A stretch of DNA of 64,000 nt, from NCBI GenBank assembly GCA_028281575.1, contig JANQJP010000030.1, positions 67,401 through 131,400 on the forward strand. Reading direction: 5' to 3'. The notes beneath the pieces were generated by a model, which searched no databases, had not been told where the DNA came from, and saw nothing but the letters and a program-made list of their open reading frames with translations. Origin of the DNA: Cellvibrionaceae bacterium. GTDB lineage: Bacteria; Pseudomonadota; Gammaproteobacteria; Pseudomonadales; Cellvibrionaceae. Of the stretch, positions 2,228-34,033 are shown piece after piece (positions within the stretch are counted from its first letter, which is position 1; each line of letters begins with the position of its first letter). Position numbers and translations under genes: made by a program.

Positions 2228-5200
2228 GTGACTTTAATGAATTGTCTCCGCGCACGCTGCTGCCTGTCGTTTAAGCAAGTTATATTTTTCTCGCTAATTA
2301 TTTTCCTCGTATCATGTAAAGATCGTGCTCCGGAAGATGAGGTGGTTTACTTTGTTATGCCCGATCGTTTTGAAAACGGCCGGGAGAGAAATGATACCGG
2401 TGGGATTGACGGTGACCGCACAGTGCACGGTTTTGACGCGTCGGATGAGTCCTATTATCACGGTGGAGATATCAGGGGTTTGCATAAAAAGCTGCCCTAT
2501 CTACGCAAGCTCGGTGTGACCTCTCTATGGTTAACGCCGATATTTAAAAATAGTCCAGTTGCGATCGATGGTAACAGCGCGGCTTATCACGGTTACTGGA
2601 TTCAGGATTACACTCAAGTCGATCCTCATTTGGGCACAAATAGGGAGCTCAAGCGTTTTATTCGTTCGGCGCACCGGTACGGAATCAATGTTTATTTCGA
2701 TATCGTTGTGAATCACACGGCCGATATTATTCGTTACGAAGAGTGTCACAACCCGGACGGCTCTTTTCCTGACAGTGTTAGCGCATGTCCTTACCGCGAT
2801 ACATCTCAAACACCCTACAGTCCATTTGTGCCTTCGGGGCTGGAGGACATTAAACAGCCGGAATGGCTCAATGATTTTGCCAACTACCACAACCGGGGTG
2901 ACTCGAGTTTTTCGGGAGAGTCAGATGAACTCGGTGATTTTTTTGGCTTAGATGATATCAATACAGAAGATCCCGTTGTCGTTCAAGGTATGATCGATAT
3001 TTTTAAATACTGGATTAAAGAATTTGATATCGACGGTTTCAGACTCGACACCGCTAAACATGTAAATATTGAATTTTGGCAGGAGTGGACGCCTGCGATT
3101 AAGCATTTCGCCGCTGCTCAGGGCAAGGAAGATTTTTTAATTTTCGGGGAAATTTTTGATGGTAATCCAAAAAATGTCAGTCGTTATACGACAGAGGGCA
3201 CGCTGCCATCGGCGCTGGATTTTGGTTTGTATTTCGCGATGCGAGATGTATTTGCAACCAATGCCGCGCCGACGCGTATCGCGGATATGTTTGCCCAGGA
3301 TGATTATTATATTGATGCCGATAGCAACGCTTACAATTTGCTTTCGTTTGTCAGTAATCACGACATTGGCCGCCTGGGTCACCAAATTGTTAGCGCCAAT
3401 CCAAACGAATCAGATGAGCAGCATCTAGCGCGTCTACAGCAGGCTTATGCCCTGATGTATTTTGGCCGGGGTATTCCTGTTATTTATTATGGTGATGAAC
3501 AGGGTTTTGTCGGTGGCGATGGCGATAAAGCCAACCGCGAAGACATGATGCCAAGTTTGGTCGAAAGCCAGAATCAAAATAAATTAATGGGTACCGATGC
3601 TACTACTGCCGATGCAAATTTTGATAGACATCACCCGATGTACCAAACTCTGCGCAGCTACAAGAAAGTGTTGGATCTTCACCCAACGTTGCGACGCGGC
3701 AAACAATATGCGCGCTTCGCTAGCGACGCCCCCGGAATTTTGGCAATTTCGCGCGTGGACCCAGAATATCCAAATGATTATTTGGTTGTTTTGAATACCT
3801 CAACGCAGGAACAAAGCGCCCGTATTCCCGCGGCGGCCGACAGTTATATGAGCGTGCACCCCCATCGGTCTTTCGACAGGCTCGAAGCTGTTGGGGGAGA
3901 ACTTGAACTCACCCTGCCTCCGTTATCCACCGTTGTTTATAAGTCGCGCCAACTAGTCGACGGCGCGACGTTGGCGAATGTTGGATTTGGTTTGGCTCAG
4001 GGTTCAAAACGCAAAGGGCGTTTTGAAGTTCCGGCATTAATCACCCTAGTGGATGAAGACCATCCCTTGCCGCTTATTGACGTCGACTTTGAAGTCTCTG
4101 TCGATGATAGTGCCTATACATTTATCGGGACCGATTATAGTGATGATTTTCGTGTCTATTTCGATACTTTGGATTTGCAGGACGGAACAGCGTTACGCTT
4201 TCGCGCAACGGCGAAAGACCGCCACGGCAATGCAATAAGTGCTGAATCTGAAATTGTTGAAGTGGGTGTTCAGCCAGGTATGAACATTATTTTTAAGAAA
4301 CCCGCCACTTGGTCAGACAGCATTAATATTTATTATTGGGATGCGGAGCCCGCTCCCGGGGTTGATTGGCCGGGCGTTTCAATGACGGATATTGGCAATG
4401 GCTTTTTTCAATATCAGTTTCCAGATGATGTGGGTAGCGCCAATATTGTTTTTAATGATGGTGCCAATCAGACATCCGATCTTTATCGTGAGAGCGACGG
4501 TTGCTATATTGACAGCGCGTGGCAAGACAGTTGCGATAGTTCGGGCAGCGCCGGTGGTTTCGTTGTTTATTTCCAGCAGCCTGAGGATTGGTCTGAGTCG
4601 ATAAATATTTATTATTGGCAGGCCGCTCCGCTTCCGGACGCAACGTGGCCTGGCGTTCCGATGCAAGTGTTGGGCGACGGCTGGTTTCGCTACGCGTTTC
4701 CCGAGAGTGTTTCCTCAAGCAACGTAATTTTTAACGACGGTAGCAACCAAACGGCGGACTTGAGCCGCGATAGGGACGGTTGCTATATCGATGGAGCGTG
4801 GGTGGATGTCTGCGATGCGCCAATGTTAGGGCTCTTAGTCACCTTTGTGAAACCTCCTGAATGGGGGGATGCCATTAACGTCTATTACTGGAATGCCGCA
4901 GGGTCGGTTGCGGATGCGGCCTGGCCTGGATTTGCGATGGAAGAGGTCGCTAACGGCTGGTATCAATTCCGTTTGCCGCCCGGTGCAACCAGTGCAAATA
5001 TTATTTTTAACGATGGTCAAGGTAATCAAACAGTGGATTTATTTCGGGAAGGCGATGGCTGCTTTGGCGTCGAAGGTCAGACCTGGAGCGATAGCTGTGA
5101 TATTCCGGTCGACGTTCAGGTCTCAGGTTTTGGCGCGCACTGGTTGGATAGCAGTACAATCGCCTGGCAGCCACGTGCCAGCGATGCGGCGAGCTATCGA

Positions 5201-8200
5201 CTTTATGTCTCCGATGCCGCTGCGCTCGATGTCGATGGCAACCAAATCTTGGGCGCCAGTGGCGATTTTGAACTCAGCCCTGGTGCCAGTCTGAGCCAGG
5301 CTGTAGCCGAGAAATTCCGACACCTTGCAAACTTCCCCGCATTTTCCATTTCGCTCAGTGAGGCAGAGCTCACAGCCGCACTGAAATCTCAGCTCTACGT
5401 GGCAGCTTTTAATGGCAATGGGGTTTTGCGTGAGGTGACGCGGGTGCAGACGCCGGGTGTGATAGACGGACTCTACGCGACTGATGTGCCGCTTGGACTG
5501 CAGCTCAACGATGGTTCGCCGCGCTTGAGTCTATGGGCGCCGACCGCGCAGGAGGTTTTGTTAAACCTCTACGATGCCAACAAAAATCTCCTGGATACTG
5601 TGAATCCAAGCTCAATTGACAACGGGGTTTACAATTTTGACGGCAGCACTTCCTGGTTAGATCTGTTCTACAAGTTTGAGATCACCGTCTATCACCCTGA
5701 AACGGATGCGCTGGAGAGCTATGAGGTCACCGACCCCTACGCATTGAGCCTGAGCACAAACAGCGAATACAGCCAGATCGTCGATCTCGAAAATGATGCC
5801 GCATTGAAGCCCCCCGGTTGGGATGCCCTGGTCAAGTCACTACCGGAAAAGCGCAATATTTCGGTCTACGAAGGTCACGTGAGCGACTTCAGTGACAGCG
5901 ATGAGCTCGTCGCGCTCGAACATCGTGGCAAATATAAAGCCTTCACTTACAACGGTGAAAATGGCCGACCACTGTCACACGGAATGCAGCACCTTAAAGA
6001 CCTTGCAGCGGCCGGGCTGACACATTTTCACCTGCTGCCGGTTAACGATATCGCCACAGTCAATGAAGACCCGACGCGGCATGTGCGCCTCGATGAGCCT
6101 TATACTCGAGCGTGTGAACTTAGTTCTGATGCAGCCGTGCAGGACGGTTGCAGTGAATTTGCGGGTATGACGATTCGCGAAGCGTTTGAACAGTTGAGTG
6201 CAGCTGACCCTGTGAACGAACGGGTTCAAGCCATCGCCAATGCCCTGGCTAACGTCGACCCGGTTAACTGGGGTTACGACCCTTTCCACTTCCTGGCCAT
6301 CGAAGGCAGCTACGCGACAAACAGCGATGGTAAGCCGCGCATATTAGAGTTTCGGGAGATGGTCGCTGCGCTGGATGAGCTTGGCTTAAAGGTGGTCGTC
6401 GATGTGGTGTTCAATCACACCAATGATTCAGGCATTTCCGGCCGCTCTGTGCTCGATAAGGTTGTTCCGGGCTACTATCACCGTCGCAACCCGTTTAGCG
6501 GTTTTGTCGAAAACTCGACCTGTTGTGAGAACACCGCCGCCGAGCATGTGATGATGGAACGCCTGATGATCGACACGGTGGTGCTCTGGGCCGAGCAGTA
6601 CAAAATTGACGCATTCCGCTTTGATCTGATGGGGCACCACCCACGTTCGACAATGTTAAATATCCAGGCTGCGCTGGCCGATCTCAATATCAATGATCAC
6701 GGCGTGGAAGGTGAGAAAATCTACCTATACGGTGAGGGTTGGGATTTTGGTGAAGTAAGTGGTAACCAACGTTTCGATCAAGCCACGCAGTTTAATATGG
6801 GTGGCACCGAAATAGGTACCTTTAATGACCGTTTACGCAGTGCTGTGCGCGGTGGGAATTTCACCGATACCGGCCGTTCGCAGGGCTTCGGTAATGGCAA
6901 TGGCACCTACTGGAACGGGGTCGCCAATGGCGCAGGGTCTGCACAGGACCAGGCCGATCGCATTCGCATCGGTTTAGCGGGTAATTTGCGCGACTATGCG
7001 TTTATTGATAACGCCGGCAATGTTAACTCTGGCGCAGGTTACGTGGGTGTCGGCTATGGCCTGAGCCCACTCGACAACGTGGTTTATGTCGACAAGCACG
7101 ACAACGAAACACTTTGGGATAATACGCAAGCGAAACTACCCGATGGTCTTGGTACAGCAGAACGTGTGCGCATCCACGTGCAGAACCAGTCCTTTGTAAA
7201 CTTTGCGCAGGGTATTCCGTTCCACCAAATGGGCACAGATATTCTGCGTTCCAAGTCAATGGATCGAAACTCCTTCGATTCAGGGCCCTGGGCCAACCGC
7301 GTTGATTTTAGTCTTGCCACATCAAATTGGGCCTCAGGTTTGCCACGTGCATCGGAAAACAGTTCGCGTTGGGACACGATGCGTCAGATTATGAGCAACC
7401 CGAATATCGATCCTCGAACGCCGGAAATCGCACTGGCCAGTGCGCTATTTCAAGAACAGCTGGCAGTTCGCTACTCAAGCGAGTTGTTCCGCCTCGGCAG
7501 CGCTGAGGCGGTCAAACAACGCGTTGCGTTTTGGAATACCGGACCGGCGCAGACCTTGGGTGTGATTGCGATGAGTATTAGCGATGGCAGTTGTGCGGGC
7601 GCCGACTTAGACCCTGAGCTGAATGGGGCAATGCTCATTTTCAACGCCGATGACGATGCGCACACCATAAGTATCCCCGAGTTTGCCGGCGTTGAATTTG
7701 CGTTGCACCCTGTGCAGCAAGCGAGCGCAGATGCAATCGCGAGTAGCTCCAGCTACGCCGCCGCAAATGCTAGCTTCAGTGTTCCGGCACACACCACTGC
7801 GGTATTTGTCAGCCCTCAGTTGGGCGCCCAGGGCGATTTTCCATGCAACCCGCACAATGGCACTTTTGTTGAACCGGGTTTTACAGTGTATTTCCAAAAG
7901 CCGTCGGATTGGAACGAGTTGCGCGTGTACTACTGGAATACCCATCCTGCGACGTCAGACCTCGTGTGGCCCGGTCTTGAAATGCAGCCTTTGGGTGGTG
8001 AGTGGTATAGCTTTACTCTGCCGGATGGTGTGGCCAGTGCGAACCTGATTTTTAATAACAATAATAACGGGCAGCAGACAGCAGATCTTTTCCGGGAAGG
8101 TGATGGGTGTTTCGATATTTCCAGCGGGACATGGTCGGACAACTGTGCGGTTCCAGGTATTGCGCTCAGCTTTGAAAAGCCCGCGGGCTGGGGCGACGAT

Positions 8201-23932: not shown

Positions 23933-24991
23933 ATGAGCAGCGTCAAATTGAATAAATTACCACCAACTCAAGAACTGGAAACACCAGCTATTCTGAGAGC
24001 ACTGGTTGACGCACATAGGCACTTGGCTGAACTCAAAGGTGTCGCCAAAACTATCCCGAACGAAGGCATTTTAATATCGACGCTTTCACTTCAGGAAGCT
24101 CAAAGCAGCTCTGAAATTGAAAATATTATCACCACTCAAGATGCGCTTTATAAACAAGAGCTGCAGACGAGCGTATCTGATCCCGTGGCGAAAGAAGTTG
24201 CCTATTACGCTGCCGCATTACGATCAGGCTTCGACAAAGTGAAGCAACAAGACGCGCTTACTTTAAATACCATCATGGAAGTTCAGCAAACGCTTGAAGG
24301 AAACAGAGCAGGCTTCAGAAAAATACCCGGCACTGTGCTTAAAAATGACCGAACAGGCGAAGTTGTATTTGAACCTCCTTCACCCGAGTTAGTGCCTCAA
24401 TATATGTCAGACCTCGAGTCGTTTATTAACGCGGAGCAAAACCTCGACCCGTTAGTTTGCATGGCACTTATACATCATCAGTTTGAAACTATTCATCCTT
24501 TTTACGATGGCAATGGTCGCTCTGGCCGTATCGTTAATATCCTTTACTTACTGCTGAAAGGTCTCTTAGACACACCGATCCTATATTTGAGCCGGTACAT
24601 CAACCAAACCAAAGATGAGTACTACACAGAACTTCAAAACGTTCGTGACACAAATGAGTGGGAAGCTTGGCTTCTCTATATGCTTAGAGGTGTGAGCTCA
24701 ACAGCGATACACACCATCGATCTAGTTCAAAAGATCCAGAAGCTGTTACTCGAAATAAAGCAAGAAATCCGTGACAAACACAAATTTTACAGCCAAGACC
24801 TCATAAATAATTTATTTCGCCACCCATACACTAAAGTCGCTTTTCTAGAAAAAGACCTTGGCGTATCTCGTGCAACAGCCACTCGATACTTAGATGCTCT
24901 CTCAGATGATGGAACTCTCCAAAAGCATAAGCTCGGTAGAGAAAGCTTCTATATGAATCAAAGGCTCATCGGTGTGCTGTTTAATATGTAA
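23933..24991 (+). CDS. Fic/DOC family protein (class II, with internal inhibitory motif).
   Basis: Canonical HPFYDGNGRSGR (HPFx[D/E]GNGR). N-terminal SSEIEN matches the SxxxE[G/N] inhibitory helix. C-terminal winged-helix region. Confidence 0.85.
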   Translation: MSSVKLNKLPPTQELETPAILRALVDAHRHLAELKGVAKTIPNEGILISTLSLQEAQSSSEIENIITTQDALYKQELQTSVSDPVAKEVAYYAAALRSGFDKVKQQDALTLNTIMEVQQTLEGNRAGFRKIPGTVLKNDRTGEVVFEPPSPELVPQYMSDLESFINAEQNLDPLVCMALIHHQFETIHPFYDGNGRSGRIVNILYLLLKGLLDTPILYLSRYINQTKDEYYTELQNVRDTNEWEAWLLYMLRGVSSTAIHTIDLVQKIQKLLLEIKQEIRDKHKFYSQDLINNLFRHPYTKVAFLEKDLGVSRATATRYLDALSDDGTLQKHKLGRESFYMNQRLIGVLFNM

Positions 24992-25354: not shown

Positions 25355-25429
25355 GGGCCGTTAGTTCAACGGTTAGAACCCTGGCCTCATAAGCCAGTTA
25401 CGAGAGTTCGACTCTCTCACGGCCCACCA
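25355..25429 (+). tRNA. tRNA-Met or Ile2 (anticodon CAT).
   Basis: Acceptor gggccgt/acggccc, anticodon arm ctggc-ctcataa-gccag, T-loop gttcgac, encoded CCA. Confidence 0.75.
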
Positions 25430-25789
25430 AATTTAGGAAATCAACAGGAAAAAGAGATTTATTTTAATTGAGGCTTAGAACATTTTTTTATAGATGAATA
25501 GTGTGATTTAACCGGTAGGGAAATTTTGAATTTTAATCAATTTTTCTCCGATGTCCCCTTCCCGAAATTTTGCCATATGCTGCAATAGGGAATTGCTCAC
25601 CCTAAAGAAAAATAACGCTATATAATATTCGGGAATACACCCAAAAAATCACCAAAAATTAAATTTGAAAAGAAAAAAAACAGCGCGTATCGTTTAAAAC
25701 AGATTCGCAACACGAACAAAAAACAGTAAGTAAAAAATTATGAAATTTAACTATCAGCAACATAGCAAGCATTTTTATTTATTGGGCTG

Positions 25790-25950
25790 GCCCACACCAT
25801 CCATAGATACAAATGTACTCCGTAGTGGGCTAGAACGTCCCTGCGTAACTTTTGGTGATAGCAAACTAATGTAAGCAGCTTTCGATAACGGAAGGCTGTG
25901 CCTTCCGGTGAATTAGAGAAACCCCGGTTGGCAACAATCGGGGTTTTTTT
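25790..25950 (+). ncRNA. Candidate small RNA with intrinsic terminator.
   Basis: Several stable hairpins (gcccac/gtgggc, ggaagg/ccttcc) end in ccccg-N-cgggg plus T7. No ORF. Confidence 0.3.
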
Positions 25951-26289
25951 ATGCCCACGGATGGGCGGTATAACGCAAGAGCCATGGATGGCGTTAGCGT
26001 ACGTTTTAGGAAGAACGAATTCGCGAAAGCTGGATGCTAAGTAGCGGAATTTTATGGAGTAGTACTCGCACGGATTGCGATTTTTGTTTCTAGCAATCGG
26101 AATTGCTAAACGCGCAATGGATGTGCGGAAACAATTTTATTTAGGTGTGATACCCACCGACACGGTATCGGTTTTTTAACAATGTGGTCGCTTTTTTTGG
26201 CAGGTAGCTGCTTTCCCCTTTTAATAAGGGCAAAGCCCTCGGCGTCTAACTGATTAGACATAGGTGCCTTTCCTATTCTGCCAACCAAT

Positions 26290-26364
26290 GTCCCTATGGT
26301 CTAGTGGTGAGGACTCCTGACTTTCTATCAGGCAGCGCCGGTTCGAGTCCGGCTAGGGATACCA
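26290..26364 (+). tRNA. tRNA-Glu (TTC).
   Basis: Anticodon arm cctga-ctttcta-tcagg, T-arm gccggttcgagtccggc, CCA. Confidence 0.7.
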
Positions 26365-26371
26365 AATTTTT

Positions 26372-26596
26372 GGGCATGCAGGCGAGAATGGAGAACCACT
26401 ACCAAAAACGATTAGGTTAAGGGTAGCCGGGTAAAACCGGAGGTTACTGAAATAAGCTATTACGCATGGTTGAGGATGCAGGCTCGATGCTCTACGGCGG
26501 GTGTCAGCTGGCGCGCGTTTTCCAAGTAATTAGCTTGGCTGAGAGTAATGCCTCAGTTGTTTCCTTTCGCGGGTTCGAATCCCGCCATGTCCACCA
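26372..26596 (+). ncRNA. Interrupted tRNA-like gene: canonical T-arm/acceptor/CCA with the cognate 5' acceptor strand 215 nt upstream.
   Basis: 3' end is gcgggttcgaatcccgc-catgtcc-a-cca. The only complementary 5' strand is gggcatg at 26372 (one G-U pair). About 150 nt of extra structured sequence lies between them. Confidence 0.4.
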
Positions 26597-26602
26597 ATTG
26601 TT

Positions 26603-26677
26603 ACGTCGATAGCTTAATGGAAAAGCGTTGGTCTCCAAAACCAGAAGATGTGGGTTCAAATCCTACTCGGTGTGCCA
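26603..26677 (+). tRNA. tRNA-Trp (CCA).
   Basis: Anticodon loop ctccaaa, T-arm gtgggttcaaatcctac, acceptor with two G-U pairs, CCA. Confidence 0.65.
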
Positions 26678-26728
26678 AATAAAAGCGGGATAGTGAAGCA
26701 GAAAGGAGGGGCTCCCGCAACCAAATTT

Positions 26729-26804
26729 GTAGAGATAGCTCAAATGGCGAGAGCGCCTGATTGAAGCCCAGGAGATCCCGGTTCAATTCCGGTTCTCTAC
26801 ACCA
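26729..26804 (+). tRNA. tRNA-Phe (GAA).
   Basis: Acceptor gtagaga/tctctac, anticodon loop ttgaagc (A31·C39 mismatch), CCA. Confidence 0.6.
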
Positions 26805-26810
26805 ATTTAC

Positions 26811-26886
26811 TGCTACATAGCTTAACTGGTAAAGCGCCCGGCTGTTAACCGGGAGGATGCAGGTTCGAAGCCAGCTGTAGCAGCCA
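26811..26886 (+). tRNA. tRNA-Asn (GTT).
   Basis: Anticodon arm cccgg-ctgttaa-ccggg, CCA. Confidence 0.7.
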
Positions 26887-26891
26887 AATTA

Positions 26892-26975
26892 GGGGAAGTA
26901 CCCAAGTGGCAAAGGGATCGCACTGTAAATGCGAAATATGTTGAGACGTAGGTTCGAGTCCTACCTTCCCCACCA
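26892..26975 (+). tRNA. tRNA-Tyr (GTA), class II.
   Basis: 84 nt. Anticodon arm tcgca-ctgtaaa-tgcga, long variable arm, T-arm gtaggttcgagtcctac, CCA. Confidence 0.75.
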
Positions 26976-26982
26976 AAAACCA

Positions 26983-27073
26983 GGAAGTGTGGCCGAGCGG
27001 TGAAGGCACCGGTTTGCTAAACCGGCAAGTGACGAAAGTTGCTTCAAGAGTTCGAATCTCTTCGCTTCCGCCA
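26983..27073 (+). tRNA. tRNA-Ser (GCT), class II.
   Basis: 91 nt. ggaagtgtggccgagcgg... is Ser-like. Anticodon arm ccggt-ttgctaa-accgg, CCA. Confidence 0.8.
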
Positions 27074-27085
27074 ATTTGATTACTT

Positions 27086-27175
27086 GGAAGGTGCGGTCCA
27101 TTGGCGGACAACCGGTCTTGAAAACCGGCGAGTTGTAGAGATACGGCTGGGGTTCAACTCCTCCACCTTCTTCCA
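27086..27175 (+). tRNA. tRNA-Ser (TGA), class II, with non-canonical D- and T-stems.
   Basis: Anticodon arm ccggt-cttgaaa-accgg is identical to E. coli Ser-TGA. Discriminator U, CCA. Confidence 0.55.
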
Positions 27176-27188
27176 ACTTTTTAATAAT

Positions 27189-27265
27189 GTGCCGGTGGTG
27201 GAACTGGAATACACAACAGGTTTAAGCCCTGTTCGCTGAGGGTTCGAGTCCCTCTCGGCACACCA
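27189..27265 (+). tRNA. tRNA-Leu-like (TAA) with short variable arm.
   Basis: Anticodon arm acagg-tttaagc-cctgt. 77 nt with a 5-nt variable loop, A73, CCA. Confidence 0.5.
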
Positions 27266-27270
27266 ATAAT

Positions 27271-27347
27271 GGCCAGCTGATGGAATTGGCATACATGCGT
27301 GCCTTAGAAGCACGATTTTCCGAGTTCGAATCTCGGGCTGGCTACCA
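27271..27347 (+). tRNA. tRNA-Leu-like (TAG) with short variable arm.
   Basis: Leu-type D-arm (tggaattggcatacatgcg), anticodon arm cgtgc-cttagaa-gcacg, 77 nt, A73, CCA. Confidence 0.5.
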
Positions 27348-27353
27348 ATTTAA

Positions 27354-27430
27354 GCAGGTGTGGCGCAATAGGCAGACGCGCTGGATTCAAATCCCAGATG
27401 TTGTGAGTTCGACTCTCACCACCTGCACCA
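27354..27430 (+). tRNA. tRNA-Leu-like (CAA) with short variable arm.
   Basis: D-arm gtggcgcaataggcagacgcg is nearly identical to the bacterial Leu D-arm. Anticodon loop ttcaaat, variable loop only 5 nt, A73, CCA. Confidence 0.55.
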
Positions 27431-27435
27431 AAACT

Positions 27436-27634
27436 CGTGGAGTAGTTTAATCGTTTGCAGTTTTTTGCTCCTGCAAAAACTGCATTTCCACCATCCTTGG
27501 TGGTCAATGCGATTTTCATAAAATTGGTGTTGGTGGTTCACAAATTTTTCAGGAAAAAATTTGGGCGTCTGTATAGACGGTTGCGAAGCAACTGACTACA
27601 TGGATGTAGTCATCAACCCCACCCTCCACGACCA
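27436..27634 (+). tRNA. tRNA(CAT)-like gene carrying a D-region insertion and a T-arm insertion (199 nt).
   Basis: Acceptor cgtggag/ctccacg + A + CCA. Anticodon arm cgatt-ttcataa-aattg. T-stem ggtgg/ccacc and T-loop ttcacaa are followed by a ~75-nt insert. A ~70-nt insert lies between the acceptor and the anticodon arm. Confidence 0.45.
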
Positions 27635-27643
27635 ATTAAAAAT

Positions 27644-27718
27644 AGCAGTGTGGTGTAACTGGCAACACACGTGACTTTGACTCACGTATTTCAGGTTCGA
27701 ATCCTGGCGCTGCTGCCA
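27644..27718 (+). tRNA. tRNA-Gln (TTG).
   Basis: Anticodon arm cgtga-ctttgac-tcacg, G73, CCA. Confidence 0.7.
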
Positions 27719-27730
27719 AATAAAAACTAT

Positions 27731-27881
27731 GCACGAGTGGCAGAGAGGGTATGCGCGGGATTGCAAACCCCGTATTACGCCGGTTAGACAAAATTGTAGG
27801 AACAATTTTGGGATGCGCTTTGCACAGGTTGCGAAGCAACTTAACACACGGATGTGTTAACCAATCCGGCCTCGTGCTCCA
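27731..27881 (+). tRNA. tRNA-Cys (GCA) with an ~80-nt insertion after the T-loop (151 nt).
   Basis: Acceptor gcacgag/ctcgtgc + U73 (Cys identity) + CCA. Anticodon loop ttgcaaa. T-stem gccgg/ccggc is split by the structured insert. Confidence 0.55.
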
Positions 27882-27886
27882 ATTTC

Positions 27887-27962
27887 GGGGGCCCATGTAC
27901 CAAGGGGGCGACGATGCTTTGCAAGCATTGTGTGGTCGGTTCGATTCCGACGGTCTCCACCA
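27887..27962 (+). tRNA. tRNA-Ala (TGC).
   Basis: G3·U70 identity pair is present. Anticodon loop tttgcaa, T-arm gtcggttcgattccgac, A73, CCA. The D-arm is non-canonical. Confidence 0.6.
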
Positions 27963-28419
27963 GAACTAAACCTTTTAGGTTTATTGGGTATGGCCAAGAT
28001 AGCACGGTGTAAATCGTGTAAAGGGGGGACGCCTGCGTAACTCCGCCAGAGCAATCTGGTCAATCCATGCAAGCCGAGCCTGCAGAGGCTTCATCACAAG
28101 ATGGAGATATCAGCAATGATGTAGAGCGTCTGAATGAGTTTAAGCACCTTTGAGTAAAAAACTTGGAGGAAATGCAAGCTCATAAATCAGCAAGTGGTGT
28201 TGGATCACGCTCAAACCAATACATTTACCTGAGACAGGCAAAGGGTAGCGCAAAGGTGCGATCCGCAAGAGAGTGCATTTGTGCAGTTGATAAGTGTCGG
28301 AAGAAAAACCGTCGCTTTGAAAACCGTTAAGTAAGCGGTAGCTGAAAGACATGTGGCGAGTGGCATTTTGTCGATCAAAAGTCGATAAAACCACAGGACG
28401 TGCTCGCTGCAGCAGGTTG

Positions 28420-28492
28420 TTGAAATTAGCTCAACTGGTAGAGCAATTGACTCGTAATCAATAGGCTGCTGGTTCAATCCCAGCATTTCAAA
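28420..28492 (+). tRNA. tRNA-Thr (CGT).
   Basis: Acceptor ttgaaat/atttcaa (all A/T), D-arm tagctcaactggtagagc, anticodon arm attga-ctcgtaa-tcaat. No encoded CCA. Confidence 0.65.
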
Positions 28493-28846
28493 CCCAAACA
28501 GAAAAATGCAAAGACACGTCCGGTGTTTTGTGAAAATGGCTTAATGCCTTGCTACGCAAGTAGAACAAGGCTGATTAACCGGCCGCAAGCTGGAAGATCA
28601 TCTGTCACAACGTGCACGTTGGTCGCAAACCTTTAGAGCTCGCAAGGCTCGCGGTAACGAAAGGGCAGAAAAACAAAACACGACAAGTGAATCGCCACAC
28701 TTTTAAAAAAAGGCAGCCATGTCGAATTACATCCTTGTCCCCTGCGGGAAATGATGTGGATACGAAATTAACTTGTGGTCGCAAGCCACAAGGTAAGGTT
28801 TCAAAAGGTTCGACGCAAACGCTGTAGTCTCAAGCGTTTAATTTTC

Positions 28847-28925
28847 GGTTCGTTAGCTTAGCCTGATTTAAAGCACTCGGTAGTCAGCCGAGGGATCACG
28901 GGTTTAAATCCCGTACGAACCGCCA
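28847..28925 (+). tRNA. tRNA-Asp (GTC).
   Basis: Acceptor ggttcgt/acgaacc, anticodon arm ctcgg-tagtcag-ccgag (A33 is unusual), G73, CCA. Confidence 0.6.
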
Positions 28926-28926
28926 A

Positions 28927-29000
28927 GCGGCATTGACCGAATGGCGAGGTACCTGCCTTCCAAGCAGAGGAACAGGGTTCGATTCCCTGATGCCGCTCCA
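28927..29000 (+). tRNA. tRNA-Gly (TCC).
   Basis: Acceptor gcggcat/atgccgc, anticodon loop cttccaa, U73, CCA. Confidence 0.7.
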
Positions 29001-29031
29001 ATTTATTTTTCATCTATTAAAAATTTTCTTT

Positions 29032-29109
29032 CCGGGTTTAGCTCAGTTTGCGAAGAGCGCTTGCTTTGGGAGCAAGAGGCCCTAGGTTCGAATCCTAGTA
29101 CCCGGACCA
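29032..29109 (+). tRNA. tRNA-Pro (TGG).
   Basis: D-arm tagctcagtt..., anticodon arm cttgc-tttggga-gcaag, A73, CCA. Confidence 0.7.
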
Positions 29110-29116
29110 AATTAAT

Positions 29117-29330
29117 GGACGTGTAGCTCAATGCCCTCGGGTGCAACTGGGTGGCAAATTTTTGCTCCTGCAAAGTTTTCATTTCCGCCATCCATGGCGG
29201 TCAGCACCTGTTTTACACACAGGATACGGTGGTTCACAACTTTGCAGGAGTAAGAGTTGGACGCCCAAACGGGCGGTCGCGAAGCGATTATTTACAGGGA
29301 TGTAAATAACAATTCCATTCACGTCTACCA
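29117..29330 (+). tRNA. tRNA-Val(TAC)-like gene with D-region and T-arm insertions (214 nt).
   Basis: Acceptor ggacgtg/cacgtct + A + CCA. Anticodon arm cctgt-tttacac-acagg. T-loop ttcacaa is followed by a ~75-nt insert. A D-region insert shares ttttgctcctgcaaa and a covarying hairpin with the gene at 27436. Confidence 0.45.
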
Positions 29331-29349
29331 CTTCAAATTTTAAAAAAAT

Positions 29350-29502
29350 GCTCACGTCGCTTAACGGCAAAGCACTTCCCTTGTAAGGAAGATGATGACG
29401 GTTCAAATAATTTGACAGGATCAAATTAAGGCGTCCTTTAGGGCGGTTACGAAGTAACTGTTTTACATGGATGTAAAACATCAATCCAGTCCGTGAGCTC
29501 CA
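29350..29502 (+). tRNA. tRNA-Thr(TGT)-like with an ~80-nt insertion after the T-loop (153 nt).
   Basis: Acceptor gctcacg/cgtgagc + U + CCA. D-stem gctt/aagc. Anticodon arm cttcc-cttgtaa-ggaag. T-loop ttcaaat, then the insert. Confidence 0.5.
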
Positions 29503-29506
29503 ATTT

Positions 29507-29582
29507 GCTCGATTAGTTTAATTGAAGAAAACGCTGGCGTGCGAAGCCGGTAATGCAGGTTTGAATCCTGCATCGAGCGCCA
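29507..29582 (+). tRNA. tRNA-Arg (GCG; unusual anticodon).
   Basis: Acceptor gctcgat/atcgagc, anticodon arm ctggc-gtgcgaa-gccgg, G73, CCA. Confidence 0.55.
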
Positions 29583-29594
29583 ATTTATTTTTTT

Positions 29595-29669
29595 CCGCTC
29601 GTGGCGTAATGGTAGCGCATCGGCCTTTTAAGCCGACAGGTGTAGGTTCAAGTCCTACCGGGCGGACCA
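29595..29669 (+). tRNA. tRNA-Lys (TTT).
   Basis: Anticodon arm tcggc-cttttaa-gccga, A73, CCA. Confidence 0.75.
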
Positions 29670-29676
29670 ATTCTTT

Positions 29677-29752
29677 GCTCCCGTAGCTCAATGAATAGAG
29701 CACTTGTCTTCGAAACAAGTTGATGCTGGTTTGAATCCAGCCGGGAGTGCCA
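29677..29752 (+). tRNA. tRNA-Arg (TCG).
   Basis: D-arm tagctcaatgaatagagc, anticodon arm cttgt-cttcgaa-acaag, G73, CCA. Confidence 0.65.
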
Positions 29753-29776
29753 ATTAACGATAAGAGAATACTTAGG

Positions 29777-29849
29777 GGTGGCTATAGCATAGTGCCAATG
29801 CCCCTGGTTGTGATCCAGGTTGACATGGGTTCGAATCCCATTAGTCACC
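29777..29849 (+). tRNA. tRNA-His (GTG) with G-1:C73, embedded in a 13-bp inverted-repeat extension.
   Basis: Extra 5' G pairs with C73 (His identity). Anticodon arm cctgg-ttgtgat-ccagg. Flanks gagaatacttagg / cctaagtattctc are perfect inverted repeats. No CCA. Confidence 0.7.
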
Positions 29850-29886
29850 CCTAAGTATTCTCAATTACTCAATCAAGGAGAGCATC

Positions 29887-30180
29887 ATGCGCATAGCACT
29901 AAGTAAACGCGAGTGTTATCACGCAGATATTTATTGCAGTGATAGCAACTCCGCGAAAAAAATACTAAGAGAAAATCCGATTTCCATATTAGCCGTGGAT
30001 TTTTATTTGTATGGCCGTGAAAACGGTACTCATGTCTTAGCATGGGCTAGGACAAAAAAACTACTTCCACATTATGTAGTGGTAACAGAAAGCGACCGCA
30101 ATAAACGTGTTCTATTAGCTGAAGAGCTCACGAAAGGAGGTTACAACTCTGCTGATGGAACAACATTTATAAAACATTAA
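29887..30180 (+). CDS. Hypothetical small protein inside the tRNA array.
   Basis: Strong SD (aaggaga) 8 nt upstream of ATG. 97 aa. Fold unknown; weak resemblance to receiver-like domains. Confidence 0.45.
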   Translation: MRIALSKRECYHADIYCSDSNSAKKILRENPISILAVDFYLYGRENGTHVLAWARTKKLLPHYVVVTESDRNKRVLLAEELTKGGYNSADGTTFIKH

Positions 30181-30181
30181 T

Positions 30182-30258
30182 GTCCTCGTGGCTCAACTGG
30201 AGAGCGCAACGGATTTCTACTCCGTAGGTTGTGGGTTCGAATCCTACCGGGGACGCCA
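30182..30258 (+). tRNA. tRNA-Arg (TCT).
   Basis: D-arm tggctcaactggagagc, anticodon arm acgga-tttctac-tccgt, G73, CCA. Confidence 0.65.
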
Positions 30259-30284
30259 GTATAGCAACCAGTAGGAGCAACGAG

Positions 30285-30842
30285 ATGGGCAGAGTATTGC
30301 GCTTAGATATTTCCGGAACGCCAACTTCTTGGCTTTCGCGGAAAGAAGCGGCCGTTTTATATGTTAAAAATTTAGTGCAGTGGGAACTTGGAGATAAAAG
30401 TTTAGTTATCTTCGGAGGAACAAACCGATTAACCGGAAAACAATCTTCGTTGGAAATCAGCCCAGTTATTGCAACTCGAGGTGATACTCATCGAAGAAAA
30501 TTGGTTTCCGGATTTAATAATCGAATGCTATTCCGTCGAGACAATTATCACTGCATGTACTGTGGTGGAAAATTTAGTCACGTAGAATTGACACGAGATC
30601 ACGTAGTACCGCGTGCACAAGGAGGATTAGATATTTGGGAAAATGTTGTGGCAGCCTGTGGAAGGTGCAATCACTTTAAAGCGGACCGCACACCTGAACA
30701 AGCGGGTATGAAGTTATTAGCCATACCTTTTAGACCAAATATATTTGAATCCATGTACTTAGCACAACACAAAGTACTAGCAGATCAAATGGAATACTTG
30801 GAAAAACAATTTTCAGGTAAAAGAACTTGGAAAGCGGCGTAA
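30285..30842 (+). CDS. HNH endonuclease.
   Basis: DHVVPRAQGG...WENVVAACGRCNHFK HNH/ββα-Me motif with a Cys zinc knuckle (CMYCGG). SD aggag upstream of the ATG at 30285. The longer ORF annotated from 30231 would overlap the tRNA. Confidence 0.8.
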   Translation: MGRVLRLDISGTPTSWLSRKEAAVLYVKNLVQWELGDKSLVIFGGTNRLTGKQSSLEISPVIATRGDTHRRKLVSGFNNRMLFRRDNYHCMYCGGKFSHVELTRDHVVPRAQGGLDIWENVVAACGRCNHFKADRTPEQAGMKLLAIPFRPNIFESMYLAQHKVLADQMEYLEKQFSGKRTWKAA

Positions 30843-30975
30843 ATTACTTACGTCGTATTCCATACAGAAGTTTATATCTTCGCCGAGAGTTAGCGGAACT
30901 GGTTCTGTACGCCAGTCTGGCACAAGCGTTGTTAACGTGCTGTGTACCAATTCGAAAGCGGGAATAAATTGGATG

Positions 30976-31052
30976 GTTTTTGTAGCTCATTCGGGTAGAG
31001 CAATAGACTCATAATCTATCGGTAGCGGGTTCGATTCCCGTCAAAAACACCA
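30976..31052 (+). tRNA. tRNA-Met or Ile2 (CAT), second copy.
   Basis: Acceptor gtttttg/caaaaac, D-arm tagctcattcgggtagagc, anticodon arm ataga-ctcataa-tctat, A73, CCA. Confidence 0.65.
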
Positions 31053-31421
31053 CGTCGTCTCCAAAACGACTCTATGGGAAGGCCGAGAGGCTTGAGGTTC
31101 GAGTCCTCACAAGACTTTCACTCTTGTTTAAAATCTACGAGAGGTCCATGATCTTGAATTGGGTAGGTCAGTAGCGAAAGCCATTGGCTGATCACAATTC
31201 AGGGTGCCGACAATATAGCCGGGTTAGATGGGTCGAATTGGCACGATGACATTCTATGAATGTGATGCGTTTATACACCACCTCAATATAAAAGGATGAT
31301 TGTTGGGTGAGTGATAAATAAATCCACTCCTCTAGAATGAACTCCTGCCGATTCCAAATGTGATCCCCCTGTATTCGAGGGTGGGCCTCGCCATTAATTT
31401 TTTAAGGCAAAAGGAAATACG

Positions 31422-32579
31422 ATGTTCTTTTTAAAAACAGTTGATATTGCCGATAACGAACGAGCGTTGCTCTTTGATCGAGATCGGCTACAAAAAGTAC
31501 TTGGCCCAGGGCGACACCGCTTGTCTACTTTTGGGCGAAAGTTAACAGTAGAAAAGTTTGACATTACTTCAGTGCGCTTTGAGCACCCAAAGCTCAAGTT
31601 TTTGGTGCGTCAGTACCAAGCGCTTCTTGAAGACTATGTAGATGTGTTTGAGCTAAATGATAGTGAGGTCGGTGTTATCTACCGCGATCAAAAAATCTCG
31701 GATATTCTACCTCCAAGTAATTTATTGGTTACTTGGAAAGGTGCTGAGGACGTTCGAGTAGATATCGTCGATATCACTAAAAACTATGAAATCAAAGATG
31801 AACTAGTTGCACTTTTAGGTCGAGGCGTAAAAATCGGTACAAGCCGACAAGTTGTGAATGCCATTAGCTATGCAGAGGTACCAGATGAACATGTGGGGCT
31901 TCTACAAGTTAACGGTAAGTTAGAGCGTGTACTTGAGACCGGCGCTTACGCCTTCTGGAAATACAACCGGTCAATTGTAGTAAAGCTGCTTGATTTACGT
32001 GTACAGACCATTGATGTAAGCGGCCAAGAAATCTTGACTAAAGATCGTGTGAGCTTGCGTATTAACTTGTCAGCGAGCTACAACATTGTCGATCCAGAAA
32101 GCGTTGCACTAAAACTGAAAGATTACGCGAACTTTCTGTACTTAGAGCTTCAATTGCGATTGCGAGAAGCCGTGGGCACAAAACTATTAGATGAATTACT
32201 TGAAGATAAGGATGCCCTCAACTCAGTGATCGCGAATGGCGTTAGTGAGAAACTAGCCGAGTTTGGTATAAAGTTGCGAAGTGTGGGTGTAAAAGACATT
32301 ATTCTACCCGGTGATATGAAAGTGATCCTAAATCAAGTTGTCGAAGCTCAAAAAGAAGCCGAAGCTAACGTGATTAAACGACGAGAAGAAACTCAAGCAA
32401 TGCGATCACTACATAACACCGCAAAAGTAATGGAAAACAACCCAGTGCTATTGCGATTGAAGGAGCTTGAAGCGCTAGAACGAATCACTGCAAAAATCGA
32501 TAAGATTTCTGTATATGGTGGTTTAGATAGTGTACTCAATGACATGGTCAAACTAGCTCCTTCCAAACCGGCTCAATAA
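31422..32579 (+). CDS. SPFH/band-7 (stomatin/prohibitin/flotillin/HflK-C-like) domain protein.
   Basis: Central SPFH-like region followed by a long coiled-coil Ala/Glu-rich segment. SD aaggaaa upstream. Confidence 0.75.
   Translation: MFFLKTVDIADNERALLFDRDRLQKVLGPGRHRLSTFGRKLTVEKFDITSVRFEHPKLKFLVRQYQALLEDYVDVFELNDSEVGVIYRDQKISDILPPSNLLVTWKGAEDVRVDIVDITKNYEIKDELVALLGRGVKIGTSRQVVNAISYAEVPDEHVGLLQVNGKLERVLETGAYAFWKYNRSIVVKLLDLRVQTIDVSGQEILTKDRVSLRINLSASYNIVDPESVALKLKDYANFLYLELQLRLREAVGTKLLDELLEDKDALNSVIANGVSEKLAEFGIKLRSVGVKDIILPGDMKVILNQVVEAQKEAEANVIKRREETQAMRSLHNTAKVMENNPVLLRLKELEALERITAKIDKISVYGGLDSVLNDMVKLAPSKPAQ

Positions 32580-32785: not shown

Positions 32786-34033
<1,248 letters not shown>

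Follow-up and report, generated by a model that had tools for sequence, protein, structure and literature searches.

A conserved, tRNA-shaped RNA of about 225 nucleotides in tRNA arrays and beside RNA-repair genes

A structured RNA in one slot of a tRNA array

We analysed a 64,000-nucleotide (nt) stretch of DNA from a Cellvibrionaceae bacterium (contig JANQJP010000030.1), referred to below as the window. It carries an array of 23 transfer RNA (tRNA) genes, and between two of these, tRNA-Glu and tRNA-Trp, lies the element studied here (positions 26372–26596, forward strand). Reading the window sequence, we found a gene for a 225-nt RNA that runs from G1 through an encoded CCA and occupies one tRNA slot of a variable tRNA array. 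ARAGORN made no call between the end of tRNA-Glu (26364) and the start of tRNA-Trp (26603), and the Rfam tRNA model gave no match at its gathering score inside the element. The first-pass annotation of this locus had described a textbook T arm, acceptor and CCA at the 3′ end and a distant 5′ strand, gggcatg, that completes the acceptor with one G-U pair, and it had named a conventional tRNA within the region as the finding that would make this distal pairing spurious. Both structural features were borne out by the sequence, and the search for such a tRNA with ARAGORN and the Rfam model found none. The strands GGGCATG and CATGTCC pair along their whole length, with 3:70 as the sole G·U; they are followed by A73 at 26593 and the encoded CCA at 26594–26596, and the T arm reads GCGGG-TTCGAAT-CCCGC.

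Distal pairing in one sequence is weak evidence, and comparative data decide the matter. By our own arithmetic, the odds that a 7-mer pairs with CATGTCC, G·U included, are about 5e-4 at each position, which gives a chance of about 0.1–0.2 for a distal partner over a few hundred upstream bases. Such chance partners do occur, both among viral 3′ ends of transfer-messenger RNA (tmRNA) and in 15 of 21 pattern matches in metagenomes. The minimum free energy z-score of the window copy is only −1.67.

The comparison drew on nine distinct sequences of 221–235 nt (G+C content 0.47–0.61) from beta- and gammaproteobacteria, which align over their full length. A gapped pattern scan of metagenomes returned 21 matches, six of them true homologues (loci L159, L164, L166, L169, L173 and L176); the remaining 15 were ordinary tRNA-Ala-like genes with a chance GGGCATG upstream and were discarded. 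BLAST or the covariance model of the family (R1) identified homologues on the Eleftheria terrae plasmid NZ_CP106953.1 (52433–52663), in Undibacterium pigrum GCA_003201815.1 and on an IMG/VR contig (L188). The HNH endonuclease gene at the end of the array led to a 96% identical copy in the same slot after tRNA-Glu (L153), and contigs encoding the closest HNH proteins led to a copy (L189) that is identical to the window's and sits between tRNA-Glu and tRNA-Trp with other flanks. Identical copies beyond the nine distinct sequences are this one and those in L176 and L184 (Undibacterium pigrum), which match L164.

Among PLSDB plasmids, only that of Eleftheria terrae carries the element. We found no relative of the element in INPHARED phages, nor of the surrounding 20 kb, and exact and near-exact patterns for the 3′ end, the 5′ end and the core gave zero matches in IMG/VR. 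A general tmRNA-type 3′-end pattern matched 69 IMG/VR loci, none of them a family member; these were ordinary tmRNA-sized spans, short tRNA-sized spans or 3′ ends without a 5′ partner.

We derived a consensus structure with RNAalifold from a MAFFT alignment that had not been fitted to any structure. Among its 62 pairs, 32 showed at least one compensatory change across the nine distinct sequences. Standard pairs were formed in 94.1% of cells, compared with 37–51% when the 3′ partners were slid by 1–3 columns, and none of 500 column shuffles reached the observed value on any of five measures. R1 matched the window copy end to end with 215.6 bits. Because the acceptor pairs in all nine homologues, with pairing-preserving changes at 5:68 (A-U or G-C) and 6:67 (U-A, U·G or C-G), the distal pairing is real. 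We are therefore highly confident that the element is a genuine RNA, both conserved and structured. A remnant of a decayed tRNA or tmRNA, or a functionless chance pairing, would agree with the z-score and with a distal pairing that alone arises by chance in 10–20% of cases on our arithmetic, but the full-length conservation across beta- and gammaproteobacteria over this range of G+C content, the 32 compensatory pairs and a fixed position relative to sigma-54 promoters (described below) reduce its probability to next to nothing. Conservation and covariation rule out a pseudogene, and with it the pseudo-tRNA that had been suggested at the first pass.

The RNA keeps the order and spacing of a cloverleaf, with 7 bp, 2 nt, a D arm, 1 nt, a 5-bp stem, an extra arm and the T arm (Table 1). 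G3·U70, A73 and the ACCA end are invariant in all members. In the D-like stem (helix 2), 92.6% of cells pair and L188 supplies a single compensatory change, U-A. The stem in the anticodon position, H3, encloses a loop of 16–20 nt across members, in which the 5′ part (RAAAAY) is conserved, the 3′ half is variable and there is no anticodon. The loop of the next hairpin, H4, is A-rich and GUAAAAC-like in all members. Beyond it, the long-range helix H5 closes an inserted domain, its 3′ strand ending 3–5 nt ahead of the T arm (3 nt in the window copy); inside, H6 shows a change from U-A to A-U between the window and L153. R1 also matched ordinary tRNAs end to end at 10–30 bits. The best of these matches were tRNAs with a long variable arm (Ser 29.7, Tyr 24.5), and the D arm and anticodon arm of tRNA-Tyr aligned to helices 2 and 3.

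In this RNA, a conserved multi-helix domain of about 150 nt replaces the variable arm. The first-pass suggestion of a variable-region insertion was therefore right in its anatomy, since the extra nucleotides occupy exactly the variable-arm position of a tRNA. Bessho et al. reportedly found in 2007 that the body of tmRNA (its helix 2) exits the tRNA-like part at this point, mimicking a long variable arm. The two A-rich loops and the GC-rich palindromic core (GGCGCGCG) look like tertiary or protein contact sites. Three hairpins had been named earlier in the intervening sequence. Two correspond to conserved hairpins, ccgggtaaaaccgg to H4 and ctgagagtaatgcctcag to H10; the third, ccaagtaattagcttgg, is not a hairpin but the 3′ strand of the long covarying helix H6, whose partner is 26453–26463.

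The same anatomy bears on whether a tRNA gene has been interrupted by an intron or mobile insertion that is removed to give a decoding tRNA, as had also been proposed. Such a gene would account for outer parts that align to tRNAs, and the family neighbours RtcB, the tRNA-splicing ligase of archaea and animals (10.1101/312249). The insert, on the other hand, is the best conserved and most covarying part of the RNA, and its excision would leave a 16–20-nt loop without an anticodon. A permissive scan of 26340–26620 against Rfam 15 (expectation value (E) up to 10) gave five weak matches only (tmRNA, permuted tmRNA, YrlA, GOLLD and a plastid untranslated-region element), with no group I or other intron family among them. 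The splicing endonuclease is, moreover, not known from bacteria, and we consider the intron reading very improbable.

Table 1. Parts of the RNA and neighbouring features in the window
Feature	Position	Strand	Details
Acceptor stem	26372–26378 with 26586–26592	+	GGGCAUG/CAUGUCC, G3 at 26374; 7/7 pairs in 9/9 sequences
D-like arm	26381–26397	+	3-bp stem GGC/GCC in most members; GAAGGGAG-type loop holds GG
H3, anticodon-stem position	26399–26403 with 26422–26426	+	5 bp CUACC/GGUAG, 18-nt loop here; 3/5 pairs compensatory, 100% of cells pair
H4 hairpin	26427–26440	+	CCGG-GUAAAA-CCGG; 2/4 pairs compensatory, 100% of cells pair
H5 long-range helix	26441–26447 with 26559–26565	+	Closes inserted domain; 7/7 pairs compensatory across family
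H6	26453–26463 with 26527–26537	+	Inside H5; 9/11 pairs compensatory
Core, H7–H9	within 26464–26526	+	Nearly invariant GCAWGGUUG..GAUGCAGGYU...CARCUGGCGCGCGUUUCCAA; enclosed by H6
H10 hairpin	26538–26557	+	GCUGAG-AGUAAUGC-CUCAGU; 4/6 pairs compensatory
T arm	26569–26585	+	GCGGG-UUCGAAU-CCCGC; loop invariant; first pair G-C, G·U or A-U
tRNA array	25355–31052	+	23 tRNA genes, all +; those read end in encoded CCA
tRNA-Glu(UUC), upstream neighbour	26290–26364	+	7-nt spacer; ARAGORN
tRNA-Trp(CCA), downstream neighbour	26603–26677	+	6-nt spacer; ARAGORN
HNH endonuclease	30285–30842	+	Pfam
tRNA-Met(CAU)-like gene	30976–31052	+	77 nt; ARAGORN tRNA-Met, Rfam 69.6 bits
Band-7/SPFH protein	31422–32579	+	Pfam; HNH/tRNA-like/Band-7 module at array end spans 30285–32579

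Repair operons and tRNA arrays as genomic contexts

The main indication of function comes from a genomic association with Rtc RNA-repair operons. In L164, L166, L169, L176, L184 and L188, rtcR lies divergently upstream of the element and rsr lies downstream; the full order in L164 is rtcR (reverse), element, rsr (the Ro60 orthologue), three YrlA-like RNAs, rtcB and rtcA. Five distinct loci (L164, L166, L169, L176 and L188) have the element directly upstream of rsr, L184 being an identical copy of the L164 locus. Rsr was identified with Pfam/NCBIfam in L164 and L188 and by a typical Ro60 N terminus read in L169. We found a perfect sigma-54 consensus, TGGCAC-N5-TTGC, in L164, L166, L169, L176 and L184; it ends 16 nt before G1, so transcription from the RtcR-dependent promoter would reach the RNA first. 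In L188 the consensus has no exact match, and rtcR and rsr are adjacent. On the Eleftheria terrae plasmid the consensus lies 63 nt before G1 and an RtcB gene starts 22 nt downstream. The element abuts rtcB in L159, L173 and L177, and in the first two of these it is just downstream of rtcB, among DIP1984-family and rtcA genes. Between L159 and L173, the small open reading frames (ORFs) next to the element show no relationship, and they revealed no shared RNA-specific partner protein.

The sigma-54 consensus and adjacent rtcR/rtcB/rtcA genes are both present in L164, L166, L169, L176, L177 and L184 and both absent at the three tRNA-array sites (the window, L153 and L189). Members found outside tRNA arrays probably belong to the RNA-repair regulon under RtcR and sigma-54 control. 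We also found rsr-rtcBA operons without the element in Janthinobacterium, Noviherbaspirillum, Collimonas, Duganella and Undibacterium seohonense, with the promoter directly before rsr. Because these operons lack it, the element is a sporadic accessory element of beta- and gammaproteobacteria.

Other RNA-like features accompany the element in L164. A long near-perfect hairpin (GGACTTGCACAAAA...TTTTGTGCAAGTCC; 2021–2121) lies between the element and the start codon of rsr (2136), and may be another Y-RNA-like transcript or an attenuator. The three YrlA-like RNAs between rsr and rtcB (4249–4353, 4934–5078 and 5152–5297) score 29.4, 51 and 46.5 bits against an Rfam gathering score of 69, so standard annotation would miss them.

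These surroundings invite an alternative in which the element is an uncharged, Y-RNA-like scaffold whose insert binds Rsr or another operon protein while the tRNA-like part recruits a partner, as proposed for YrlA. Its place immediately upstream of rsr in five distinct loci, the tRNA mimicry of the Y RNAs of such operons (PMC4201824) and the weak alignment of Rfam's YrlA model to the T arm (12.6 bits) are all consistent with a scaffold. The ends of the element nevertheless stay open and carry CCA; in YrlA, a loop closes the acceptor and the two ends build the Ro-binding stem (10.1101/312249). The operon in L164 moreover already includes YrlA-like RNAs, and we detected no rsr in the examined sequence of L159, L173, L177, the window, L153 or L189. 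The Ro-binding motif GNCGAAN0-1G (PMC4201824) was not seen by eye in the window and L164 copies, in which no formal search was made. On balance we regard the scaffold as unlikely.

The position directly behind the RtcR-dependent promoter would also suit a decoy or sensor for anticodon nucleases, which would either be cut, so that its cyclic-phosphate fragments feed RtcR activation, or soak up the toxin. The A-rich loops RAAAAY and GUAAAAC, both conserved, may be contact points for proteins or for U-rich anticodon loops. But the loop in the anticodon position, with its length of 16–20 nt and its variable 3′ half, is unlike a real anticodon loop, and a decoy would not need the conserved domain of about 150 nt. 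We think this possibility distinctly improbable.

In the arrays, the element follows tRNA-Glu in all three cases (the window, L153 and L189). A genome scan based on the HNH protein returned at least 80 loci, and among the matches listed there was one tRNA array without the element; in this related Cellvibrionaceae array (L071), tRNA-Glu abuts tRNA-Trp. The end of the window's array holds a module of HNH, tRNA-Met-like and Band-7 genes. The HNH and tRNA-Met-like genes recur together in L071 and L151–L154, and they are followed by Band-7 in L151, L153, L154 and L189. In L154, rtcR-rtcB-rtcA lies directly upstream of the HNH/tRNA-Met-like/Band-7 block, and in L189 the module is followed by two RlaP genes (PF10127; 8356–10025). 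RlaP also adjoins rtcR in L180 (3299–4111), and these RlaP neighbours reinforce the RNA-repair character of the L189 and L180 contexts. In the Zooshikella locus L155, an RNA-ligase gene follows HNH instead. Burroughs and Aravind are said to have assigned components of this type to RNA-repair systems in 2016.

The tRNA-Met-like gene fits the predicted b7a-tRNA (b7a for 'band 7-associated'), a concept tied to Band-7 and RNA repair as relayed in a paper that cites it (10.1101/312249). A near-consensus sigma-54 site (TGGCACAAGCGTTGT, 30918–30932) lies 44 nt upstream of this gene, although one-mismatch sites are expected by chance in the window. Just upstream of HNH, an ORF of 97 amino acids (29887–30180) gave a weak match to cREC_REC, a cyclic-phosphate-processing receiver domain (E = 7e-4, below the cutoff); compared by position and length, an ORF of 97–98 amino acids lies at the same place in L151, L152, L155 and L189.

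The array further contains a GOLLD RNA (28351–28836; Rfam 199 bits) with a tRNA-Thr(CGU) embedded at 28420–28494, in keeping with published reports that GOLLD accompanies tRNA arrays and HNH genes (PMC6582537, PMC5966550). Two ARAGORN calls, tRNA-Ala(UGC) at 27888–27962 and tRNA-Ser(UGA) at 27086–27175, fall below the Rfam gathering score; the tRNA-Ala has G3·U70 and, by eye, an odd D region. Four gaps in the array (25430–26289, 27431–27643, 27963–28350 and 29110–29506) contain no called tRNA and no convincing ORF, and could harbour more RNAs that have escaped recognition. By Pfam, the genes on either side of the array look bacterial (Fic, TonB, alpha-amylase, IS3 transposase and SPFH), with the Fic-domain gene just upstream (23933–24991) and the IS3-family transposase just downstream of the island (32878–33657). 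The different flanks of L153 and L189 point to an array that is mobile or lies in a variable region.

A possible role during RNA damage

On the basis of its sequence and contexts, we think it probable, with considerable room for doubt, that the element is an alanine-identity tRNA mimic of the RNA-damage response, a tRNA heavily remodelled to about 225 nt. From the tRNA it has kept the 7-bp acceptor with the alanine pair G3·U70, A73 and CCA, a D-like arm with a GG loop, and the T arm. G3·U70 together with A73 is the alanine identity set, so alanyl-tRNA synthetase (AlaRS) should charge the RNA. In the array, spacers of 6–7 nt and the shared strand suggest that it is co-transcribed with its neighbours; given the 7-bp acceptor, T arm and CCA, RNase P would cut at G1 and the 3′ end would be trimmed to CCA, and AlaRS would attach alanine.

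For what follows charging, our guide is genomic association only. The most likely role would be to accept alanine and then enter stalled ribosomes in the manner of tmRNA's tRNA-like end, with no tag; the main alternative would be a tRNA-shaped cofactor or scaffold for RtcB- and Rsr-based repair. Action during RNA damage is plausible because RtcR responds to cut tRNAs (PMC7790460), because tmRNA is the most frequent RtcB target in E. coli (PMC9650030) and because tRNA-like RNAs (YrlA and, in that paper's account, b7a-tRNA) have been proposed as cofactors of RtcB systems (10.1101/312249).

Several observations weigh against an alanine-identity mimic of this kind. Four other acceptor pairs are as invariant as G3·U70, so conservation of the latter is no proof of selection by AlaRS. 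The window copy itself departs from the family structure, with only 2 bp and a C·A mismatch in the D-like stem and two U·U mismatches in H5, where 5 of 7 positions pair. The family is small, and several of its nine distinct sequences are closely related. No rtc or rsr gene was found by tblastn in the 64-kb window, whose link to repair consists only of the HNH/tRNA/Band-7 module and of relatives elsewhere, and the absence of the element from most rsr-rtcBA operons examined makes it dispensable for the core system. A role in ribosome rescue in particular would have to do without a conserved reading frame or stop codon to end translation. We found no description of the element in the full-text literature, and Burroughs & Aravind 2016 (NAR 44:8525) may already have described it.

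A more specific version of the alanine-identity mimic can be put forward as an outside chance. The element would be an alanine-charged, tag-less relative of tmRNA with its own D- and anticodon-type arms and no need for SmpB, induced through RtcR upon tRNA cleavage, and it would release stalled ribosomes during repair by RtcB. If true, it would be a second, independent RNA-based device for ribosome rescue and a living example of the step from the architecture of a long-variable-arm tRNA to that of tmRNA.

The element is found both in RtcR-controlled repair operons and in tRNA arrays that may be mobile. tRNA arrays have been proposed as counter-measures against tRNA-targeting defence nucleases, and the element would connect RNA-repair operons to such arrays and to alanine-charged tRNA mimics in a testable manner. 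Two of its hosts, Undibacterium pigrum and Eleftheria terrae, are named and sequenced. ARAGORN and Rfam at curated thresholds miss the element completely.

Comparison with tmRNA, tRNAs and other tRNA mimics

No Rfam 15 family covers the element, and by our tests it does not fit tmRNA, tRNA, YrlA or b7a-tRNA. We compared it most closely with tmRNA, with which it shares G3·U70, A73, CCA, a canonical T arm on a 7-bp acceptor, and a large structured body just 5′ of the T arm. Positions 1–374 of the Rfam tmRNA model (RF00023) matched 26372–26596, the exact ends of the element, with a local E of 1.2e-8 but with 25.3 bits against a gathering score of 47; the alignment covers just the acceptor stem, the T arm and a few flanking bases, and skips 172 nt. 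Other members scored 15–18 bits with this model, and ARAGORN called neither a tmRNA nor a tRNA on the element. We searched all frames among the members for a tag and found no conserved frame or stop column. Just two stop triplets are seen more than once; each falls in a hairpin loop, and their frames differ. Members also differ in frame through indels of 1–2 nt in the conserved core. When every pair of columns was scanned, no covarying pseudoknot emerged outside the nested structure. The element does have a D-like 3-bp stem and, in the anticodon position, a 5-bp stem, neither of which occurs in tmRNA.

Three candidate coding signals were considered and rejected. The tag AITHG* would be read from the window frame GCU AUU ACG CAU GGU UGA, but its UGA is UGC in L164 and L169. 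A seemingly synonymous change in L153, from GCU to GCA, is one half of a compensatory H6 pair. A stop triplet in the large loop that might act as a built-in terminator is absent in L169 and L188.

The tmRNA-like character suggested at the first pass holds for the anatomy of the ends, but a true tmRNA is not supported. A miniaturised genuine tmRNA of the ssrA type, charged with alanine, binding SmpB and carrying a short tag frame, would be consistent with the end-to-end Rfam match, the shared acceptor and T-arm features, the existence of that frame in the window and the known occurrence of tmRNA genes in tRNA arrays of mycobacteria and phages (PMC5966550). The sub-threshold scores, the lack of an ARAGORN call, of a conserved frame or stop and of a covarying pseudoknot, and the presence of the two additional stems make us doubt it strongly.

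The two RNAs are alike in that tmRNA, too, can sit in tRNA arrays and is tied functionally to RtcB (PMC9650030). They differ in size, the element having about 225 nt compared with the tmRNA-sized spans of about 330–440 nt seen in the IMG/VR matches, and in setting, the element being an accessory gene behind an RtcR/sigma-54 promoter or in a tRNA array, with no smpB neighbour in the sequence examined. A phage array of 23 tRNA genes, including a tRNA-SeC call, holds a full-size canonical tmRNA in one slot (L186, 987–1411), which parallels the placement of the element in the window's array. A 190-kb contig (L187; IMG/VR UViG_3300024520_000049) carries a 142-nt RNA (2422–2563) that scores 35 bits with R1 and has an acceptor GGGCAGG/CCUGUCC with G3·U70, ACCA, a T arm, an unrelated interior and no ARAGORN call; it is possibly a further unclassified mimic of tRNA or tmRNA, in a large phage.

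Class II tRNAs have the same order and spacing of arms as the element and are the best non-family matches to R1. They differ in their extra arm (13–21 nt, compared with about 150 nt in the element), in having an anticodon, which the 16–20-nt loop lacks, and in position 8, which in most members of the family is C rather than U. Measured against the tRNA family (RF00005), the element aligns through its outer helices, but its 225 nt lie outside the range of 70–95 nt and its loop of 16–20 nt departs from the usual 7 nt.

YrlA is, like the element, a non-coding RNA that mimics tRNA in RtcR-controlled rsr-rtcBA operons. Its acceptor loop is closed, and its own 5′ and 3′ ends form the Ro60-binding stem (10.1101/312249, PMC4201824). 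YrlA is a circularly permuted tRNA-like RNA of about 100–145 nt, whereas the element has free acceptor ends with CCA and a larger, unlike internal domain, and co-occurs with YrlA-like RNAs in one operon. The YrlA model (RF02553) scored 12.6 bits against a gathering score of 69, over the T arm and the next tRNA. We rejected YrlA as the identity of the element given this score, far below threshold, and the open acceptor stem with ACCA that the ends form. The b7a-tRNA, as described in the citing paper (10.1101/312249), is likewise a predicted tRNA-like RNA of RtcB-type repair neighbourhoods, but by that description it strongly resembles an authentic tRNA, whereas the element has 225 nt and is unseen by tRNA finders. 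The element also lies 4.8 kb from Band-7, and on these grounds we rejected b7a-tRNA as its identity.

Earlier work ties three kinds of tRNA mimic to bacterial RNA damage and ribosome rescue, namely tmRNA, the YrlA Y RNAs and the predicted b7a-tRNA. The element would be a structurally distinct fourth, uniting chargeable ends of the alanine type, like those of tmRNA, with the genomic surroundings typical of Y RNAs.

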